Source: Chloroflexota bacterium (GTDB lineage: Bacteria > Chloroflexota > UBA11872 > VXOZ01). From it: a DNA stretch of 64,000 nt. Positions 3,598 through 61,911 of the stretch are shown in pieces. A model generated the notes under the pieces. It searched no databases. It had not been told where the DNA came from and was given only the letters and a program-made list of their open reading frames with translations. Both the position numbers and the translations under genes were made by a program. The first letter of the stretch is position 1. Each line of letters opens with the position of its first letter. The stretch is from the NCBI GenBank assembly GCA_963663275.1, contig OY760183.1, positions 672,001 to 736,000 of the forward strand. Reading direction: 5' to 3'.

Positions 3598-4926
3598 ATG
3601 AACAGCAACTCAGACGCGCTCGTTTCGGAGCGTTGGCAGACGTGGGTGAAGGTGGGCGCGCTCGCGCTGGCGGTTGCGCTTTGCCTTTTTCTCGTGAGCG
3701 CCTGCGGCGGTGACGACGAACCGGAACCGCCCGTGCCCACGCCCATTATCGCCACGGCCGTCCCCGCGCCAACGGCAGCCGCGACGGCGCCGGAGCCGGC
3801 GGCCAAGCCCGCGCCCACCGCGGCGCCCGCGTCCACCGTTACCACGCCCGTGCCGCCCGCGGCAGGCGCGTACGGTCTTGAGCAAGTTGGTACGGGTTTC
3901 GCGCGTCCGCTCTACCTCACCTACGCGCCCGGCGACACCGCCGATAGGCTCTTCATCGTGGAACAGAACGGCACGATCGCCATTCTCAGAGACGGTCGCC
4001 GCCAGGAGCCGCTCTTCCTCGACATACGCTCGCGCGTCGGCGCCAGCGCCAACGAGCAGGGCCTCCTCAGCATGGCGTTCGACCCCGACTACGCGGCCAA
4101 AGGTATCTTCTACGTCTACTACACCGACAAGGGCGGGAGCACGGTGGTGGCTCGCTACCGCGTCTCCGCTGGCAACCCGGACGTGGCGGCCGTTGACAGC
4201 GAAGAGGTGCTGCTGCGGGTCGGCCAGCCTTACGGCAATCACAACGGCGGCCAGATCAAGTTCGGCCCGGACGGCTATCTCTACGCCGCCCTGGGTGACG
4301 GCGGCTCCGGCGGCGACCCGCTCGGCCACGGGCAGAACCTGGGCACGCTGCTGGGCACGCTGCTGCGCATCGACGTGCGTACCGGCGGCGCTTACGTTGT
4401 GCCCGCGGATAATCCGTTTGTGGGGCAGGAGGGCGCGCGGCCGGAAATCTGGGCCTGGGGCCTGCGCAACGCCTGGCGCTTCTCCTTCGACCGCGCTACC
4501 GGCGATATCTTCATCGCCGACGTGGGACAGAACAAGTGGGAAGAGGTGCACTTCCAGCCGGCCGCCAGCGCCGGCGGCGAGAACTACGGCTGGAACCGCT
4601 TCGAGGGCAACGAACCCTACGGCCGCGGCGGTTCGCGTGAAGGGATGGTCTTCCCGATTGCGGTCTATGGCCGCAGCGAGGGCTGCTCGGTGACCGGCGG
4701 CTACGTCTATCGCGGCCAAAACCTGCCGGACCTCGCCGGCAACTACATCTTCGGCGACTACTGCTCCGGCATCGTCTGGACGCTCACCCCCCAGGCCAAC
4801 GGCGCGTGGCTGCGCACCGTGCTCCTGCAAGCGCCTTCGGAAATCACCTCCTTCGGCGAGGACGCCGCGGGCGAGGTGTACGTGATCATCCGCAACGGCA
4901 CGATCTACCGTATCACAGGGTCGTAG
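3598..4926 (+). CDS. PQQ-dependent glucose/sorbosone dehydrogenase family lipoprotein
   Basis: Lipobox LVSAC and a Pro/Ala linker. Motifs EQGLLSMAFDP, NHNGGQIKFGPDGYLY, GLRNAWRFSFD and SVTGGYVYRG. Confidence 0.9.
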   Translation: MNSNSDALVSERWQTWVKVGALALAVALCLFLVSACGGDDEPEPPVPTPIIATAVPAPTAAATAPEPAAKPAPTAAPASTVTTPVPPAAGAYGLEQVGTGFARPLYLTYAPGDTADRLFIVEQNGTIAILRDGRRQEPLFLDIRSRVGASANEQGLLSMAFDPDYAAKGIFYVYYTDKGGSTVVARYRVSAGNPDVAAVDSEEVLLRVGQPYGNHNGGQIKFGPDGYLYAALGDGGSGGDPLGHGQNLGTLLGTLLRIDVRTGGAYVVPADNPFVGQEGARPEIWAWGLRNAWRFSFDRATGDIFIADVGQNKWEEVHFQPAASAGGENYGWNRFEGNEPYGRGGSREGMVFPIAVYGRSEGCSVTGGYVYRGQNLPDLAGNYIFGDYCSGIVWTLTPQANGAWLRTVLLQAPSEITSFGEDAAGEVYVIIRNGTIYRITGS

Positions 4927-5187
4927 GGGCACGACACGTCGTGCCTCTACGGCGCGACACCGTTTATCATTGGGCGAGGACGCCGCGGGCGAGGTGTACG
5001 TGATCATCCGCAACGGCACGATCTACCGTATCACAGGGTCGTAGGGGCACGACACGTCGTGCCTCTACGGCGCGACACCGTTTATCATTGGGCGAGGAAG
5101 CCGCTGGCGAGGTGTACGTGATCATCCGCAACGGCACGATCTACCGCATCACAGGGTCGTAGGGGCACGACATGTCGTGCCCCTACG
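4855..5187 (+). repeat. About 2.8 tandem copies of a 118-bp unit: 68 bp gene 3' end + 28 bp family A REP + 22 bp flank
   Basis: Units start at 4855, 4973 and 5091. REPs are at 4923, 5041 and 5159. Confidence 0.95.
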
Positions 5188-6520: not shown

Positions 6521-6548
6521 GTAGGGGCACGACATGTCGTGCCCCTAC
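6521..6548. repeat. Family A REP GTAGGGGCACGACATGTCGTGCCCCTAC
   Basis: Perfect 28-bp palindrome. Eleven copies in the window: 4923, 5041, 5159, 6521, 9805, 10170, 10535, 29963, 37699, 49901, 61877. Confidence 0.95.
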
Positions 6549-6549
6549 G

Positions 6550-6689
6550 GAAACCATCGCAAAACTGCGTCATTCCGGCGAAAGCCGGAATCCAGACCGC
6601 ATGTACAACTAAAGATAGCGTGCGGTCAAGCCTTGTCATCCCTATCCCAACCTTTTTCCTCAATGGGGAAGGGGTTATGCAAAGGTCTC
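6550..6689 (+). mobile_element. 140-bp MITE (GAGACCTTTGCATAAC-type ends), target-site duplication CTACG
   Basis: Same length and interior as the copies at 16846, 29992, 32133 and 62587. CTACG at 6545-6549 and 6690-6694. Confidence 0.85.
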
Positions 6690-6808
6690 CTACGGGGTTA
6701 TTCCGTCTGTTCGCTTCCCGCTTGTCTCTCGCCTTCACCGGCGCGTACAATGCACCCTAACGATGCGTTGAAACCTCGCCTGTGCAATCCCTCTTGGAGG
6801 CTCCTGTG

Positions 6809-9766
6809 ATGGATAGAGACACATTCAAGAATCCCGGTGTCGAGTACCGCGCCGTGCCGTTCTGGTCGTGGAACGATTGGTTGGAAGACGGCGAGTTGGT
6901 GCGGCAGATCGACGAGATGGAGAAGGCCGGGTGGGGCGGCTTCTTCATGCACTCGCGGCTGGGTTTGGAGACGCCTTACATGACGCCGGAGTGGATGGAC
7001 CGCATTCGCGCTTGCGTGGAGGAGGCGCGGCGGCGCGGTATGCACGCCTGGCTCTACGACGAAGACAAGTGGCCCAGCGGCTTCGCCGGCGGCATGACCG
7101 CGCTGAAAGACCCCGACTACCGCATGAGGGTGCTCGCCTGCCGGGTGTTCAATCGCTACGACAGCTATCCGGAGAGCGTGGCGGTGTTCGCGGGCAACCT
7201 CGATAACGGCGTGCTCACCGGCGCGCGGCAGGTGCACGCCCAACAGGACGAGGCCCACCTCACCTACCTGCAATTCCACGAATGGGTCGCGCCGCTGGGC
7301 AGCCCTTGGTTCAACGGCGCCGCCTACAGCGACCAGCTTAGCGTAGAAGGCGTGGGCGAATTCATCCAGAACACCTACGCCGCCTACCATGAGGTCTTGG
7401 GCGACGACTTTGGCGGCGTGGTGCCCGGCATCTTCACCGACGAGCCGAACTTCTGCTCCTTCCATCAGGAGCACCCGGAGATTTCCGTGCCCTGGACGAA
7501 AGGGTTTGCGCGGATCTTCCAGGAGAAGTTCGGGTACGACCTGATTCCGCACCTGCCGTCGCTCTTCTACGACGTGGGTGACTTTCGCAAAGTCCGTTAC
7601 CATTACTGGCGCGCCATCACCGAGCAGTTCGTGGAGGCGTACTCGAAGCAGATCTACGAGTGGTGCGAGGCGCACAACCTCAAGCTCACCGGCCATTACC
7701 TCTACGAGGATTCGCTCCAGCAGCAGATTCCGGTCTCCGGCGCGGTGATGCCGCACTACGAGTACATGCACTATCCCGGCATCGACCACCTGCGCCGTAA
7801 CATCGCCGATCTGGTGACCCCCAAGCAGTTGGACAGTGTCGCCTGCCAACTCGGCAAGGAGCGGGCGCTCTCCGAGACCTACGGCTGCTCCGGGCAGAAC
7901 CTCTCGTTCGAAGGCCGCAAGTGGATTGGCGATTGGCAGTGCGTGCTGGGCGTGAACTTCCTCAACCCGCATCTCTCGTCGTATACGCTGCGCGGCGCGC
8001 GCAAGCGGGACTATCCGCCGGACATCTTCTACCAGCAGCCCTGGTGGCCGCATAATGCCCTGGTTGACGACTACTACGCCCGTCTCTCGTACGCGCTCAG
8101 CGAGGGCGAGCGGGTGGTAGACCTCTTGGTGGTGCATCCCATCGGCAGCGCGTGGTCGGTCTTTCGCCCGCAGAATCCCCAGGCGGCGCGCAGGATAAAC
8201 GATCCGTGGGTCGCGCTTTCCACGCGGCTGCTGGAGGAGCACTTCGACTACCACTTTGGCGATGAGTCGATCATGGCGCGGCACGCCCGCGTGGCAGACG
8301 GCTGCCTGGTCGTCGGACAGATGCGCTACCGCGTGGTTATCGTGCCGCCCAGCATCACCCTGGCGAGCACAACGGTGTCGTTGCTCCAGGCCCTCCGGGC
8401 CGCGGGCGGCGTGGTGTTCTTCTGCGATGAGAAGCCGACGCTGGTAGAGGGCGAACGCGACGAATCCGTGGACGCGCTGGTTGCCGCGTGCGAGACGCTG
8501 CCGTTGGGAGACGAACCCCTGGCGGCGACGCTGGAACCGCATCTCAGCCGGCCCGTGCGGGTCACCAACGGGGACGGCGGCGAAGTTCCCCACGTCTGGT
8601 ACAACCTGCGGCGCAACGACAGTGGGCACACCCTCTTCCTGGCCAACACCAGCCAGGACGAAGGCGGCGACTACACGGTGAGCCTGCCTGATGGTGACAA
8701 CTGGCAGGTCTGGGACGCCGCTACCGGCGAGACCCGACCCCTGCCCGCGCCAGCCGGAGCGGCCAATGGCGGCGTCACGCTGCCGTTTGCGCCGGTCGGC
8801 TCCTACCTGCTGGTCAGCGATGCGAGCGGCCAGGCCGGTGAAACCGCGCCCGCGCCGGAGTATACCGCGTCGGTGGACGCCGGCGATACGTGGGACCTGG
8901 AACTACTCGACCCCAACGCGCTTACGCTCGACTATTGCGCCTATCGCGTCGGCGACGGCGCGTGGGAAGGCCCGGCGCCCCACCTGAAGGCCCTGGAAAT
9001 CTTGCGCAGAGGCGGAACCCTGGAACACGTCCGCATCACAGGATCGGGCGTGCCGTTTGCCGTGCGGTACACGTTTGAATCCGGCCTAGCGGCGGGGCAC
9101 GACCTCACGCTGGTGGTCGAGCGGCCGGCTGACTTCCGCATCGCGGTGAACGGCACGGCGGTCCAGCACGATCCGGACGACGGCTACTGGCTGGATACCA
9201 CCTTCCGGCGCATACCCATCGGCGCGCTCGCCCGGCCGGGCACGAACACGATTACGTTGGAAGGCGTGACCAGTCTCGATATGGAGATCGAGGCGTGCTA
9301 CGTAATTGGCGACTTTGGCGTTGAGGAATCCGACGCCGGTTTCAGGCTGGTTGCAACACCGGCGCAGGCGCGGTCAGGCGATCTCACCCATCAGGGATTG
9401 CCCTTCTACGCCGGCCGCGCGCGGCTCAGCCAGCAGGTGCGGGTCTCCCGCAACGGCGCCGCCGCTGCGCTGGCGCTCGATGGTCTCGACGCCACTGTGA
9501 CGATCGCGCGCGTGAACGGCAAGCAGGCCGGCAGCGTGGTCTGGCGTCCCCATGAAATCGACGTCTCCGGCCTCTTGGTGGAGGGCGAAAACACGCTGGA
9601 ATTGGAACTCGTGGGCACGCTCCACAACCTGCTCGGCCCCCACCACCACCGCGACGGCGAAATCCTGGCAGTCTCGCCGGCCACCTTCTCCGATTGGCTC
9701 AACTGGACCGATGACTACAATTTCGTCCGCTTCGGCCTGGAGCGCGCGCGCATCCGGATGGAGTAG
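6809..9766 (+). CDS. Large glycoside hydrolase (GH106 alpha-L-rhamnosidase-like, with C-terminal beta-sandwich)
   Basis: Motifs PFWSWND, GWGGFFMHSRLGL, WLYDEDKWPSGFAGG, GIFTDEP, LSETYGCSG and GLPFYAG. GGAGG upstream of the start. Confidence 0.8.
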   Translation: MDRDTFKNPGVEYRAVPFWSWNDWLEDGELVRQIDEMEKAGWGGFFMHSRLGLETPYMTPEWMDRIRACVEEARRRGMHAWLYDEDKWPSGFAGGMTALKDPDYRMRVLACRVFNRYDSYPESVAVFAGNLDNGVLTGARQVHAQQDEAHLTYLQFHEWVAPLGSPWFNGAAYSDQLSVEGVGEFIQNTYAAYHEVLGDDFGGVVPGIFTDEPNFCSFHQEHPEISVPWTKGFARIFQEKFGYDLIPHLPSLFYDVGDFRKVRYHYWRAITEQFVEAYSKQIYEWCEAHNLKLTGHYLYEDSLQQQIPVSGAVMPHYEYMHYPGIDHLRRNIADLVTPKQLDSVACQLGKERALSETYGCSGQNLSFEGRKWIGDWQCVLGVNFLNPHLSSYTLRGARKRDYPPDIFYQQPWWPHNALVDDYYARLSYALSEGERVVDLLVVHPIGSAWSVFRPQNPQAARRINDPWVALSTRLLEEHFDYHFGDESIMARHARVADGCLVVGQMRYRVVIVPPSITLASTTVSLLQALRAAGGVVFFCDEKPTLVEGERDESVDALVAACETLPLGDEPLAATLEPHLSRPVRVTNGDGGEVPHVWYNLRRNDSGHTLFLANTSQDEGGDYTVSLPDGDNWQVWDAATGETRPLPAPAGAANGGVTLPFAPVGSYLLVSDASGQAGETAPAPEYTASVDAGDTWDLELLDPNALTLDYCAYRVGDGAWEGPAPHLKALEILRRGGTLEHVRITGSGVPFAVRYTFESGLAAGHDLTLVVERPADFRIAVNGTAVQHDPDDGYWLDTTFRRIPIGALARPGTNTITLEGVTSLDMEIEACYVIGDFGVEESDAGFRLVATPAQARSGDLTHQGLPFYAGRARLSQQVRVSRNGAAAALALDGLDATVTIARVNGKQAGSVVWRPHEIDVSGLLVEGENTLELELVGTLHNLLGPHHHRDGEILAVSPATFSDWLNWTDDYNFVRFGLERARIRME

Positions 9767-9794
9767 GCAGGTAGGGGAACGGCTTGTACGTGGC

Positions 9795-9842
9795 CCCTCT
9801 AACGGTAGGGGCACGACATGTCGTGCCCCTACCGTTAGAGGG
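9795..9842. repeat. Family A REP (9805-9832) with 10-bp locus-specific arms, forming a 48-bp perfect palindrome
   Basis: CCCTCTAACG-[REP]-CGTTAGAGGG. A decayed GTAGGGG...GCCCCT copy precedes it at 9771. Confidence 0.9.
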
Positions 9843-9883
9843 AGCGCATGCAAATCGTTACAACAAGGTGAAAACGTAAGGCT

Positions 9884-10501
9884 ATGGCGATAGAAGAGGC
9901 CATTCCTCCACGGCGGCGCAAGCGACGATCACTTCGCCTGAAGGACTATGACTACACGCAGCCCGGCGGATACTTTGTGACGATTTGCACTCAAGATCGC
10001 CGCTGCCTATGGGGTGACGTGCGTGCTGGAGAGATGTGGCTAAATGAGATTGGGCAAATCGCCGAGTGGTGCTGGGAGGAAGTTCCATCGCACTTTCCCC
10101 ACGTGCGTGGCGATTCTTTTGTTGTGATGCCCAATCATCTGCATGGCATCCTTATCTTGAGAGAGACGCGTAGGGGCACGACATGTCGTGCCCCTACGCC
10201 CGACACGGAGGAGTTTGCTCGACCGGTAGCAGGGTCGCTGCCGACCATCATTCGCTCATTCAAGGCTGCGGTAACGAAACACGTTAGGAGAGCAACAAAG
10301 ATCAAGGATTTTCAGGTCTGGCAGCGAGGGTACTATGAGCGGATAGTCCGTAACGAGAGAGAACTCGAACTGCTTCGGGAGTACATCGTCAGCAATCCGA
10401 TACGGTGGGCACTAGATGCCGAGAATCCTGCCGTGATTGCCGGAGGAAAGCGGGGTTTACACCAAGGCTCAGGAAGGCAGAAGCACGACCCACCAGAATA
10501 G
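9884..10501 (+). mobile_element. REP-associated tyrosine transposase (RAYT, HUH Y1 / IS200-IS605 TnpA superfamily)
   Basis: RRSLRLKDYDY...YFVTICT, HUH motif VVMPNHLHGI, SLPTIIRSFK, WQRGYYE and catalytic Tyr in EYIVSNP. Family A REPs lie upstream, inside and downstream. No tnpB. Confidence 0.92.
10170..10197. repeat. Family A REP read in frame inside the RAYT gene
   Basis: Perfect copy encoding RRGTTCRAPT just after the HUH strand. Confidence 0.95.
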
Positions 10502-10519
10502 GGTCTTTTCCAATTAGTG

Positions 10520-10577
10520 GTATGGTTTTCCCGCGTAGGGGCACGACATGTCGTGCCCCTACGCGGGAAAACCATAC
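10520..10577. repeat. Family A REP (10535-10562) with 15-bp arms, forming a 58-bp perfect palindrome
   Basis: GTATGGTTTTCCCGC-[REP]-GCGGGAAAACCATAC. Confidence 0.95.
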
Positions 10578-10613
10578 ATAACTTCCGTAACGGCAGAGAA
10601 AGCAAAACATCCT

Positions 10614-11819
10614 GTGGCCGCATCCCAGCAACCTACGACCGTCGCCTCTCACCACCGTCCCGACCGGCTGACTATTTGGGCGTTCTACGTCGGCACGTTC
10701 CTCTACTGGGGCGCGCTTTACGTCTACTCGCCGATTCTCTCGGTCTACGCGGAATCGCTGGGCGCCACGTTTACGCTTATCGGCATCGTGGTGGGCACGT
10801 ACGGCCTGGTGCAGATGGCGCTCAGAATCCCGTTAGGGGTGTGGTCCGACCGCTGGGGCCGGCGGTTGCCGTTCCTCTACGCCGGGCATTTCTTCAACGT
10901 CGTTGGCTGCCTGGGTCTCGCGCTCGCGCCCACCGCCACGTATCTGGCGGTCTTCCGGGGCGTGCTGGGCATCAGCGCCGCCACCTGGGTGGCGTTCACC
11001 GTGCTCTACGCCAGCTACTTCCCCGCCGACGAAGCGCCCAAGGCCATGGGAATCATGTCGGCCGTCAACGGCGTCTCGCTCATCGTGGTCAACCTGGCAG
11101 GCGGGCAGATTGCCGAATCATGGGGCATGGTGGCCACGTTCTACGCTGGCGCGGGACTGGCCGTCGTCGGTTTGATTTCGACGGTGCCAATCAAGGAGCA
11201 GCGCGTCACGCGCACGCCGCCGACGGTCCGGCAGATCTGGCGGGTGATGACCCATCCGGTGCTGCTGATCGTCGCCTCGGTCACGGCGCTCAATCACTAC
11301 GCCTTCTGGGCGACCACCTTCAGCTTCGTGCCGGTATACGCCGACGACCTGGGCGCGAGCAAGTTCACGTTGGGCGTGATCGGCGTGGTCTCGCTGGTGC
11401 CCTATACGCTAGCGTCATTGGTCAATCATCGCTTTGCCCAACGCCTGGGCGATAATTGGGCGGTCTTTGCCGGCATGATGATCATGGCCGCCACCACGTT
11501 CGTGGTGCCGCTCATCCAGGACATACCGCTCCTCGCCGCCTCCCAGGGCGTCAACGGCATTGGACGCGGCATTGTCTACCCGCTGCTGATGGGTCTCAGC
11601 ATCCGGGAAATCTCCGGCGAGGATCGCGCCACCGCCATGGGGGTCTTCCAGGCCGTGTACGCCATTGGCATGTTCGTCGGCCCCATGACGGCCGGCGCCG
11701 TTGCCGACGCGCTCGGTCTCGGCGGCGCGTTCATGCTCTCCGGCGGCGTCTCGGTCTTTGCGGCGCTGGCCGCGCTCGTGCTCATCAAGCGGAAACCGGT
11801 GGAGCGGGCGGCGGCGTAG
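10614..11819 (+). CDS. MFS transporter
   Basis: About 12 hydrophobic segments and motif A (GVWSDRWGRR). The ORF-track ATG at 10548 lies inside the REP, so GTG 10614 is preferred. Confidence 0.85.
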   Translation: MAASQQPTTVASHHRPDRLTIWAFYVGTFLYWGALYVYSPILSVYAESLGATFTLIGIVVGTYGLVQMALRIPLGVWSDRWGRRLPFLYAGHFFNVVGCLGLALAPTATYLAVFRGVLGISAATWVAFTVLYASYFPADEAPKAMGIMSAVNGVSLIVVNLAGGQIAESWGMVATFYAGAGLAVVGLISTVPIKEQRVTRTPPTVRQIWRVMTHPVLLIVASVTALNHYAFWATTFSFVPVYADDLGASKFTLGVIGVVSLVPYTLASLVNHRFAQRLGDNWAVFAGMMIMAATTFVVPLIQDIPLLAASQGVNGIGRGIVYPLLMGLSIREISGEDRATAMGVFQAVYAIGMFVGPMTAGAVADALGLGGAFMLSGGVSVFAALAALVLIKRKPVERAAA

Positions 11820-29831: not shown

Positions 29832-29962
29832 GGTTTCGTCTCTCCCTTGTGTCCTCTTGGTATGCTCTGCCCGCATCCACCTTTGATAATAGACTCTTTA
29901 CCATCGGTATGGCGAACGCGGCCCCCGGCGTACTCATCGCATATCTCAATCCGCCCTTCCCC

Positions 29963-29990
29963 GTAGGGGCACGACATGTCGTGCCCCTAC
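29963..29990. repeat. Family A REP whose arms were split by a MITE
   Basis: Left arm TCCGCCCTTCCCC. The matching right arm GGGTGAAGGGCGGA lies beyond the MITE at 30136-30149. Confidence 0.9.
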
Positions 29991-29991
29991 G

Positions 29992-30131
29992 GCGACCTTT
30001 GCATAGTTCCGTCATTCCGGCGAAAGCCGGAATCCAGGGTGCCTTGACAGCTAACGATAGCATGAAGTCAAACCATTTCACCCCCATCCCAACCTTCCCC
30101 CTCGATGGGGAAGGGGTTATGCAAAGGTCTC
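29992..30131 (+). mobile_element. 140-bp MITE, target-site duplication CTACG
   Basis: GCGACCTTTGCATAG...GTTATGCAAAGGTCTC. CTACG at 29987-29991 and 30132-30136. Confidence 0.9.
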
Positions 30132-30285
30132 CTACGGGTGAAGGGCGGAGGCGCAGAACATGGCCGCGGTGTGGGCCGCCTGCGCGCCGTCTCTCCGGCA
30201 GAGGCCGCTTGTGTTTCACCCGCGCGGCTTCTATCATGGGGCGAAAGCAGCCGCCGGCGCGCATACACCCATTACGGAGGATCCG

Positions 30286-37686: not shown

Positions 37687-37738
37687 ATACCAAAAGACGT
37701 AGGGGCACGACATGTCGTGCCCCTATGTCTTTTGGTAT
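37687..37738. repeat. Family A REP (37699-37726) with 12-bp locus-specific arms
   Basis: ATACCAAAAGAC-[REP, one C>T change]-GTCTTTTGGTAT. Confidence 0.9.
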
Positions 37739-49900: not shown

Positions 49901-50102
49901 GTAGGGGCACGACATGTCGTGCCCCTACGCCTCCAATTTCCAACGCGCGGGTTGCCTCTCTCTGCGCGCAATGTCCCGCAGCATTAACGTAGCGCGGGGG
50001 CTTGTCCCCCGCAACGGCGAAGGACCGGACCCGTCATGCCGGCGGCAGCCGGCATCCATCTTCGCCATGCTCCTTGGACTCCGGCCTGCGCCGGAGTGAC
50101 GG
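49901..50102. repeat. Repeat cluster: family A REP 49901-49928, family C REP 49989-50012, inverted family D doublet 50031-50102
   Basis: Direct sequence match to the respective families. Confidence 0.85.
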
Positions 50103-61869: not shown

Positions 61870-61911
61870 AACAGGGGTAGGGGCACGACACGTCGTGCCC
61901 CTACCCCTGTT
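61870..61911. repeat. Family A REP (61877-61904) with 7-bp arms
   Basis: AACAGGG-[REP]-CCCTGTT. Confidence 0.9.

Follow-up and report, generated by a model that had tools for sequence, protein, structure and literature searches.

Why should a short repeated hairpin lie at the centre of a longer palindrome whose outer arms are peculiar to one site? The question is raised by positions 10520–10577 of the window, the 64 000-nt stretch of Chloroflexota DNA analyzed here, and by four similar palindromes within it. REPs of the GTAG type are palindromic, hairpin-forming units of 20–40 bp that carry a GTAG tetranucleotide tag. The DNA flanking REPs is diverse, according to sections of PMC3733652. A first-pass annotation of the window proposed that one flank of each armed REP had been copied in inverted orientation onto the other, as an inverted target duplication made on insertion. 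In this study, the arms were measured across the whole genome (G000; 3.53 Mb, 64% G+C, one metagenome-assembled contig) and were compared with swapped flanks, with a second repeat family and with the corresponding sites in relatives.

At the locus in question, a core of the element termed family A occupies 10535–10562. Family A (GTAGGGGCACGACATGTCGTGCCCCTAC) is a perfect 28-bp palindrome in which GTAG begins the 5′ ends of both strands. The core is flanked by the left arm GTATGGTTTTCCCGC (10520–10534), which is probably an inverted copy, and by the right arm GCGGGAAAACCATAC (10563–10577), which is probably the native flank and the template; together with its arms the core is predicted to form a DNA hairpin of −43.2 kcal/mol. 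All five palindromes of the first-pass annotation were recovered. At 9795–9842, arms of 10 bp (CCCTCTAACG and CGTTAGAGGG) enclose a core at 9805–9832. At 37687–37738, arms of 12 bp (ATACCAAAAGAC and GTCTTTTGGTAT) enclose a core at 37699–37726, the outermost pair of which is a G/T mismatch (TAT for TAC, the last core base being T). The copy at 61870–61911 has arms of 7 bp, AACAGGG and a native CCCTGTT, around a core at 61877–61904 with the centre ACACGT. In the fifth case, at 29950–29990, the left arm TCCGCCCTTCCCC (29950–29962) and the core (29963–29990) are separated from the right arm GGGTGAAGGGCGGA (30136–30149), which has 13 complementary bases and one extra T as a bulge. The separation was correctly attributed to a later element: 29991–30135 comprises a 142-bp inverted-repeat element (29991–30132; inverted ends GGCGACCTTTGCATA and TATGCAAAGGTCTCC, TAC on either side) and the repeated TAC (30133–30135), inserted at the REP edge. 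An element of about 142 bp with the inverted ends GGNGACCTTTGCATA abuts a family A REP at three places (window 29991–30135 and genome positions 1283040 and 1720605) and, judging from these junctions, appears to target the REP end.

Eleven family A copies lie in the window, where shuffled sequences are expected to have 0. The six not yet described show palindromy of at most 4 bp beyond the core: three tandem cores with a period of 118 at 4923–5186, only the last of which pairs past the core (4 bp, GGTC/GACC), and single cores at 6521–6548 (1 bp), 10170–10197 (2 bp) and 49901–49928 (2 bp). Two side observations bear on the 10520 locus. An ATG at the core centre (10548) opens a listed open reading frame for an MFS transporter (10548–11819), the true start of which is probably downstream because homology with relatives begins only near 10595; REP centres can apparently seed spurious start codons. 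In addition, a ten-base stretch of the right arm (GAAAACCATA) mirrors the 37687 left arm (ATACCAAAAG) when read backwards without complementing, which may be chance.

By its hairpin and its GTAG tag, family A is a GTAG-type REP. A genome-wide search at up to three mismatches gave 134 copies in G000, of which 107–117 are exact; the closest relative, G011, has 57 exact copies and the other 15 congeners have 20–46. The high copy number and dispersal of a REP are therefore seen both in G000 (134 copies) and in each of 16 congeners (20–57 exact copies). Family A resembles the GTAG-tagged REPs and REPINs with RAYT treated in sections of PMC3733652, PMC3116915 and PMC3479197 in that it is a short GC-rich GTAG hairpin at high copy, with tandem arrays that include flanking DNA, compensated hairpin changes and a single-copy RAYT gene in the genome that lies between REPs. 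Unlike a REPIN, it consists of one perfect palindrome, tagged by GTAG on each strand, and no REP doublet, and the RAYT is flanked by another family (family C). A lone core occupies the hairpin tip at the five loci named above and in the copy lists, and the Y1_Tnp gene of G000 lies between family C copies, so that family A lacks a cognate RAYT gene between its own REPs. An Rfam search of the 64-kb window gave 0 matches at the gathering score.

The exact family A unit occurs, among the matches listed, in Chloroflexota, Desulfobacterota, Acidobacteriota, Rhodothermales, Bacteroidota, Cyanobacteria, Leptospiraceae and Desulfosporosinus. Among these matches only the central four bases vary, nearly always symmetrically (ACATGT, ATATAT, ATGCAT and ACGCGT). 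Such identity across phyla is not usual among REPs and points to horizontal spread or to a binding partner that is conserved. Within G000, families A and B crowd the first 2 Mb, which holds 112 of the 134 family A copies and within which the putative origin sits (∼0.7–1.1 Mb, from GC skew). Tandem arrays whose units have a whole or half family A core at their ends (periods ∼57–118 bp) lie at 1025947–1026289, 175239–175441 and 1467851 onward in G000 and at 4923–5186 in the window; in these arrays a partner arm is found only at the terminal complete copy. In the relative G012, the sequence left of site 1 and that right of site 3 (window 9805–10562) adjoin one and the same REP, and the 205-amino-acid open reading frame between the two sites is absent; this may represent a deletion between REPs or a cassette bounded by them. 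In the relatives searched, the two flanks of the armed REPs at 1231284 and 1827205 are found on separate contigs or at distances of 10 kb to more than 100 kb, and these REPs thus appear to sit at synteny breakpoints.

Across the 134 copies, palindromy past the 28-mer has a mean of 6.0 bp and a median of 6. Lengths between 0 and 17 bp occur, none of them favoured; 88 copies extend by 4 bp or more, 69 by 6 bp or more and 28 by 10 bp or more. When the left flank of one copy was set against the right flank of another, the mean was 0.84 bp, with 6.7% of the pairs at 4 bp or more and 1.1% at 6 bp or more; random G000 positions gave a mean of ∼0.4 bp, with ∼0.6% reaching at least 4 bp. In 64 copies the 40-nt flanks have no 12-mer in common with those of any other copy; at least 4 bp is reached in 46 of these, at least 6 bp in 35, at least 8 bp in 21 and at least 10 bp in 12. 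The excess is real, and the presence of locus-specific arms on family A is confirmed. The arms are perfect and end abruptly. In 126 of the 134 copies (∼94%) the flank base next to the core is already paired, and pairing is purely Watson–Crick. Past the first mismatch, the 2010 positions compared show a complementarity of 0.297 versus 0.263 by chance; this first mismatch is G/T in only 20 of the 134. A search for a second helix past the family A arms found none above the level of family B. What adjoins the core is a multi-base block exactly reverse-complementary to adjacent sequence, as a template switch would leave.

The extension is confined in two respects. Family B (GTAGGGGCGGTTCGCGAACCGCCCCTAC) is likewise a perfect 28-bp palindrome, with the same GTAGGGG ends, and its 60 copies in G000 show no extension (mean 0.42 bp, 41 of them at zero). 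Family A itself is nearly armless in other genomes: 120 copies among the matches listed, from many phyla, have a mean of 0.7 bp, with 83 at zero, and 33 copies in 15 genomes of the same genus have a mean of 1.03 bp, with 20 at zero. In G011 the mean is 4.2 bp over nine copies, a sample that consists of orthologues of armed sites and is therefore biased upward. The arms are thus specific to family A and to the G000 lineage, extending to a lesser degree to G011.

An artefact of assembly or polishing at the hairpins of a single-contig metagenome-assembled genome would fit the observation that short-read contigs on the window break at every REP, so that their support reaches only up to the core and no independent contig spans a whole arm–core–arm unit. 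However, family B has the same format in the same genome and is without arms, which makes a general hairpin effect or an assembly artefact unlikely. Furthermore, a short-read contig from run X5, possibly the source sample, spans 6667–9824 and covers the left arm at 9795–9804 into the core with 0 differences, and the independently assembled G011 has armed orthologous REPs with compensated differences. An artefact is consequently regarded as extremely unlikely. Among public runs, X5 is identical and three others are related at low depth; the listed REP–REP joints are repeat-graph joins. G000 appears to belong to sponge metagenomes. A metagenome search anchored beside the 10520 locus yielded no further alleles.

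A second possibility is that the REP was inserted into the tips of older hairpins, both arms of which predate it. G000 does contain such structures, namely 103 unique REP-free perfect hairpins with stems of 11–21 bp, and at 37687 and 61870 the arms resemble an A-run/T-run pair. Intrinsic terminators and armed REPs share perfect GC-rich stems in intergenic DNA; in the armed REPs, however, A-rich 5′ and T-rich 3′ ends are lacking and a 28-bp repeat stands in place of the loop. The 103 REP-free hairpins have T/A end counts of 2.93/2.86 (of eight positions) versus 0.81/0.83 on the opposite strand, whereas the 69 copies with arms of at least 6 bp have 1.61/1.52 versus 1.48/1.43, which is background-like and without the terminator signature. 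Loops in the REP-free hairpins range from 0 to 8 nt and are at least 1 nt long in 90 of the 103. Insertion into looped hairpins would leave unpaired remnants, and none is seen beside the core, where 126 of 134 copies pair from the first flank base. Nor does family A show such a site preference in other genomes, among the matches listed. As an observation in its own right, the 103 hairpins end in AAAGAG...CTCTTT and look like unusually long, perfect, bidirectional terminators.

The decisive comparison is with relatives. Twenty-eight armed G000 loci were compared, mainly with G011, in which intergenic DNA is still alignable; the relatives are 10–20% diverged, and half of the sites are for this reason unreadable. 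The 14 loci at which flanks could not be aligned or synteny was broken are 681805, 1827205, 2362852, 923714, 19223, 251727, 111905, 450188, 466705, 1476269, 972525, 1665057, 1437896 and 1450809. At five loci the comparison could be anchored on a G011 REP that lies at the same offset from the homologous flank and has short arms or none. The 10520 locus is one of these (genome position 682535; arms of 15 bp in G000 and 0 in G011): its right arm matches the G011 flank at 9 of 15 positions, and its left arm at 3 of 15, a figure that is not an orthologous comparison because the G011 left flank is rearranged. The matches are 10/13 on the left and 4/13 on the right at 1035887 (arms of 13 versus 3 bp), 1/8 and 5/8 at 458738 (8 versus 0 bp), 4/11 and 7/11 at 1486232 (11 versus 5 bp), and 8/13 and 5/13 at 1312280 (13 versus 5 bp). 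Summed over the five, the better side matches at 39 of 60 positions and the other at 17 of 60, which is chance, although choosing the better side inflates the asymmetry somewhat. The former value is the usual identity of alignable intergenic DNA between G000 and G011. If both arms had pre-existed, a value near 65% would be expected on both sides. Only one of the two arms is native.

The same asymmetry is found in other comparisons. At the empty G011 site for window position 61880, CCCGTTCTTCAATC matches CCCTGTTTTCCAATC of G000, and there is neither a REP nor a counterpart of the left arm. Within G000, one arm at 1231284, 175441 and 1467851 lies in a tandem unit that is also found repeated with no partner arm. 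At the 10520 locus the left arm is without counterpart in G011, G013, G009, G008 and G012, and the left spacer, read directly from the alignment, is ∼16 nt longer in G000 than in G013. The right arm aligns gap-free and at the same offset to the flank of the degenerate G011 REP, and the match continues beyond 10577 (11/20; 36/57 overall, counted on the alignment); G013 also has a stretch homologous to 10563–10577. The proposal that one flank is an inverted copy of the other is therefore supported, both by the five loci and by the empty site at 61880, where only the right arm is present. Native arms lie on the right at five loci and on the left at five, and among these ten loci the template side shows no replichore polarity, both sides being mixed on both replichores. 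For insertion of the copied arm versus overwriting of the old flank, the best offsets gave 10–12 matches out of 24.

Two sites speak for some earlier symmetry. The empty G011 site for 296408 has imperfect homologues of both arms ∼100 nt apart, and in G013, again read directly, a 7-bp hairpin without a REP occupies the place of the 10520 right arm. These suggest that some sites began with weak symmetry that was later made perfect. An orthologous state with a single arm or an imperfect pair, the latter at 296408 and 1486232, is also the state from which a template switch would be expected to start. No alignable empty site has a ready-made adjacent hairpin, and at none are both arms already present as a terminator. 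With one arm at chance over the five loci and the left arm absent from the 61880 empty site, insertion into older hairpins is quite unlikely to account for the arms.

The orthologous REPs also date the arms. At 458738, G000 and G011 share a rare core variant (GGCATGCC centre) that is carried by only three of the 134 G000 copies, and this REP must accordingly predate the split between the two genomes. At orthologous REPs older than the split the arms differ (0 bp in G011 versus 8 in G000, 3 versus 13 and 5 versus 11 bp). The REP at 9795–9842 has counterparts in the same intergenic location in G013, G009, G008 and G012, where the arms are different or absent. The arms are younger than the REPs that bear them; because they differ at resident copies (458738, 1035887, 1486232 and window 10538), they grew where the copies already were.

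This bears directly on the mode of origin that the first-pass annotation had preferred, according to which copies are born with their arms through a nick, fold-back and self-templated extension during transposition. Such an inverted target duplication would explain why one arm is native and the other a copy, why the arms are contiguous with the core and why they are commonest in the genome with a copy-number burst (107–117 exact copies versus 20–57). However, it is not supported by the 458738 locus, where a REP that predates the split has no arms in G011 and arms of 8 bp in G000, or by the other resident REPs with differing arms, and the 120 copies elsewhere (among the matches listed) are armless even though the REP spread there. 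Duplication on insertion is accordingly considered unlikely.

The annotation had further stated that the arms share no clear sequence. This holds for the outer parts, which are unique, but not for the innermost 3–7 bp, which recur: among 100 copies extending by at least 3 bp, the inner arm is GGT in 46, CGGT in 19, AGGT in 17, CCGGT in 11 and CGCCGGT in four, and the base adjoining the core is never A (0/126). The concern that the same arms might recur at many loci as fixed subfamilies is thus borne out in part, the inner 3–7 bp forming nested subfamilies. Since the inner arm bases are non-random, later copies must in addition have inherited extended stems or acquired them by conversion; random flanks, when copied in place, cannot yield GGT in 46 of 100 inner arms, which stands against in situ copying as the only process.

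Could the arms then be subfamily features only, spread or converted from a few long-stem master copies with no local copying at all? The nested inner arms, from GGT down to CGCCGGT, and a long subfamily of 19 copies would agree with this. Orthologous intergenic REPs at three positions (window 9805–10562) have the centre ATATAT in G008, G009 and G012 and ACATGT in G000 and G013, a species-specific pattern that reflects concerted evolution of REP copies and that again would suit such a spread; concerted change does occur. However, 64 of the 134 copies have unique flanks by 12-mers, 21 of them with arms of at least 8 bp, and the outer arms match the native orthologous flank on one side. Subfamily spread with no local copying is therefore very unlikely.

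The arms also bear marks of upkeep. At 981119 there is a compensated one-base indel, G000 having CGCCGGT/ACCGGCG and G011 CGTCCGGT/ACCGGACG, and at 167446 the arm differences between the two genomes are compensated, that is mirrored, substitutions. In the 19-copy long subfamily the commonest stem is bulged (GTCAAC/GTGAC, five copies) and has been perfected in two ways, by gain of a T on the right (five copies) and by loss of an A on the left (two copies). These changes are the classical footprint of quasipalindrome correction with either arm as the template. They can also be read as point mutation with selection for a longer or stabler hairpin, for example as a terminator or mRNA stabilizer: orthologous armed copies do show compensated differences, and compensatory changes are common in REPIN hairpins according to sections of PMC3116915. 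Against this stand the lack of G/T intermediates and of graded decay at the arm ends, the spread of arm lengths from 0 to 17 bp with no favoured value, the implausibility of a compensated indel and of blocks of up to 15 new bases arising stepwise, the unaffected family B and the missing terminator signature. Stepwise mutation under selection is thus highly improbable.

The reading that we favour, with a probability of roughly 0.55, is that the stems of resident family A copies have been lengthened and kept perfect by self-templated DNA synthesis in G000 and, to a lesser extent, in G011. During replication, or during repair of an adjacent nick or break, a strand carrying the 28-bp palindrome would fold on itself and thereby set its 3′ end on its own upstream flank. 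This end would copy from a few to ∼17 flank bases and then go back to the normal template, leaving flank, REP and inverted copy of the flank in succession, with either side able to serve as the template. The same self-templated process would mend mismatches and bulges in existing stems, and copies with grown stems may seed new copies or convert others, carrying the inner stem with them and so giving rise to the nested subfamilies.

Quasipalindrome template-switch mutations occur during DNA synthesis in replication or repair, and 3′ exonucleases modulate them. According to sections of PMC8794818, perfect stems are both made and preserved by template switching, and according to sections of PMC5941160, imperfect inverted repeats in bacteria are corrected by it; sections of PMC13100816, PMC8604942 and PMC7202029 further document self-templated synthesis for bacterial inverted repeats and perfect stems. 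The Ripley model of the quasipalindrome switch, on which there is work in Escherichia coli and yeast as well as comparative studies (PMC5941160, PMC8794818 and PMC13100816), likewise involves an exact reverse-complement copy of neighbouring sequence. Such switches resemble the family A case, in addition, in that imperfect stems are perfected in one event and arms are lengthened with either arm as the template. Unlike the usual quasipalindrome events, the process in family A would be nucleated by a repeated mobile hairpin; it involves ∼94% of family A copies in a single lineage and leaves untouched a sister family that has the same format. Eukaryotic fold-back priming and foldback inversions are similar in that a single-stranded hairpin primes itself and the flank is duplicated in inverted orientation, as described in parts of PMC7467729 and PMC3907307; those events, however, involve kilobase-to-megabase duplications and dicentric chromosomes after double-strand breaks, whereas the family A tracts are 1–17 bp long and the chromosome is intact. 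No application of template switching to REP elements was found in the main texts of the literature searched, and no description of locus-specific stem extension was found in the main-text sections of the REP literature covered, including PMC3733652, PMC3116915 and PMC3479197. The mechanism that fits best, self-templated template switching seeded by the hairpin, is itself already known.

Template switching by itself is insufficient, since family B and the family A copies of other genomes lack arms. Because the arms track the copy-number burst and spare family B, a family A-specific nicking or mobilizing activity that supplies 3′ ends is suspected as the trigger. Two candidates for such an activity were rejected. 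G000 has a single RAYT-like gene (Y1_Tnp, E = 4e-11; L015 1290–2320, corresponding to G000 ∼382.8–383.9 kb), which is flanked by family C (GTAGCGCGGGGGCTYGTCCCCCGC) with two copies upstream and four downstream in opposite orientations, a classical REPtron arrangement. The sole Y1 transposase therefore lies between family C copies, and 15 of 16 relatives also match Y1, so that RAYT leaves the specificity for family A unexplained. A restriction-type nuclease that cuts the family A tip was also rejected, as neither ACATGT (observed/expected 0.83, rank 41 of 64) nor CATG (0.97) is avoided. Other palindromes are avoided in G000 (observed/expected 0.14 for CAGCTG, 0.20 for AAGCTT, 0.25 for ACGCGT and 0.40 for CTAG), which is likely to be a restriction–modification footprint.

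How REPs are processed and spread, and how long perfect hairpins originate, are both poorly understood. In G000, more than 100 copies serve as natural replicates of stem growth, with family B as an internal control and 16 congeners as an outgroup series; the same sites carry the REP without arms in this series, so that the trigger and any coupling to mobilization can be tested. The arms create perfect palindromes of 40–60 bp; these put recombination and replication at risk, and short-read assemblies are interrupted at each of them. Should generic template switching be the whole cause, family A would be no more than a clean comparative case of a known mechanism. Tentatively, and with more doubt than confidence, the element may instead be a replicator defined by structure, the unit of which is not fixed: a family-specific nicking or mobilizing activity, switched on in the G000 lineage, would cut at the hairpin, healing of the cuts by self-templated synthesis would lead to stem growth into local DNA, and the lengthened hairpin would be copied to new sites, so that stems ratchet through GGT, CGGT, CCGGT and CGCCGGT as copies rise. 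If so, the arms would be a direct footprint of the processing and spread of a singlet REP, and a mobile hairpin could create new long perfect palindromes in the genome.
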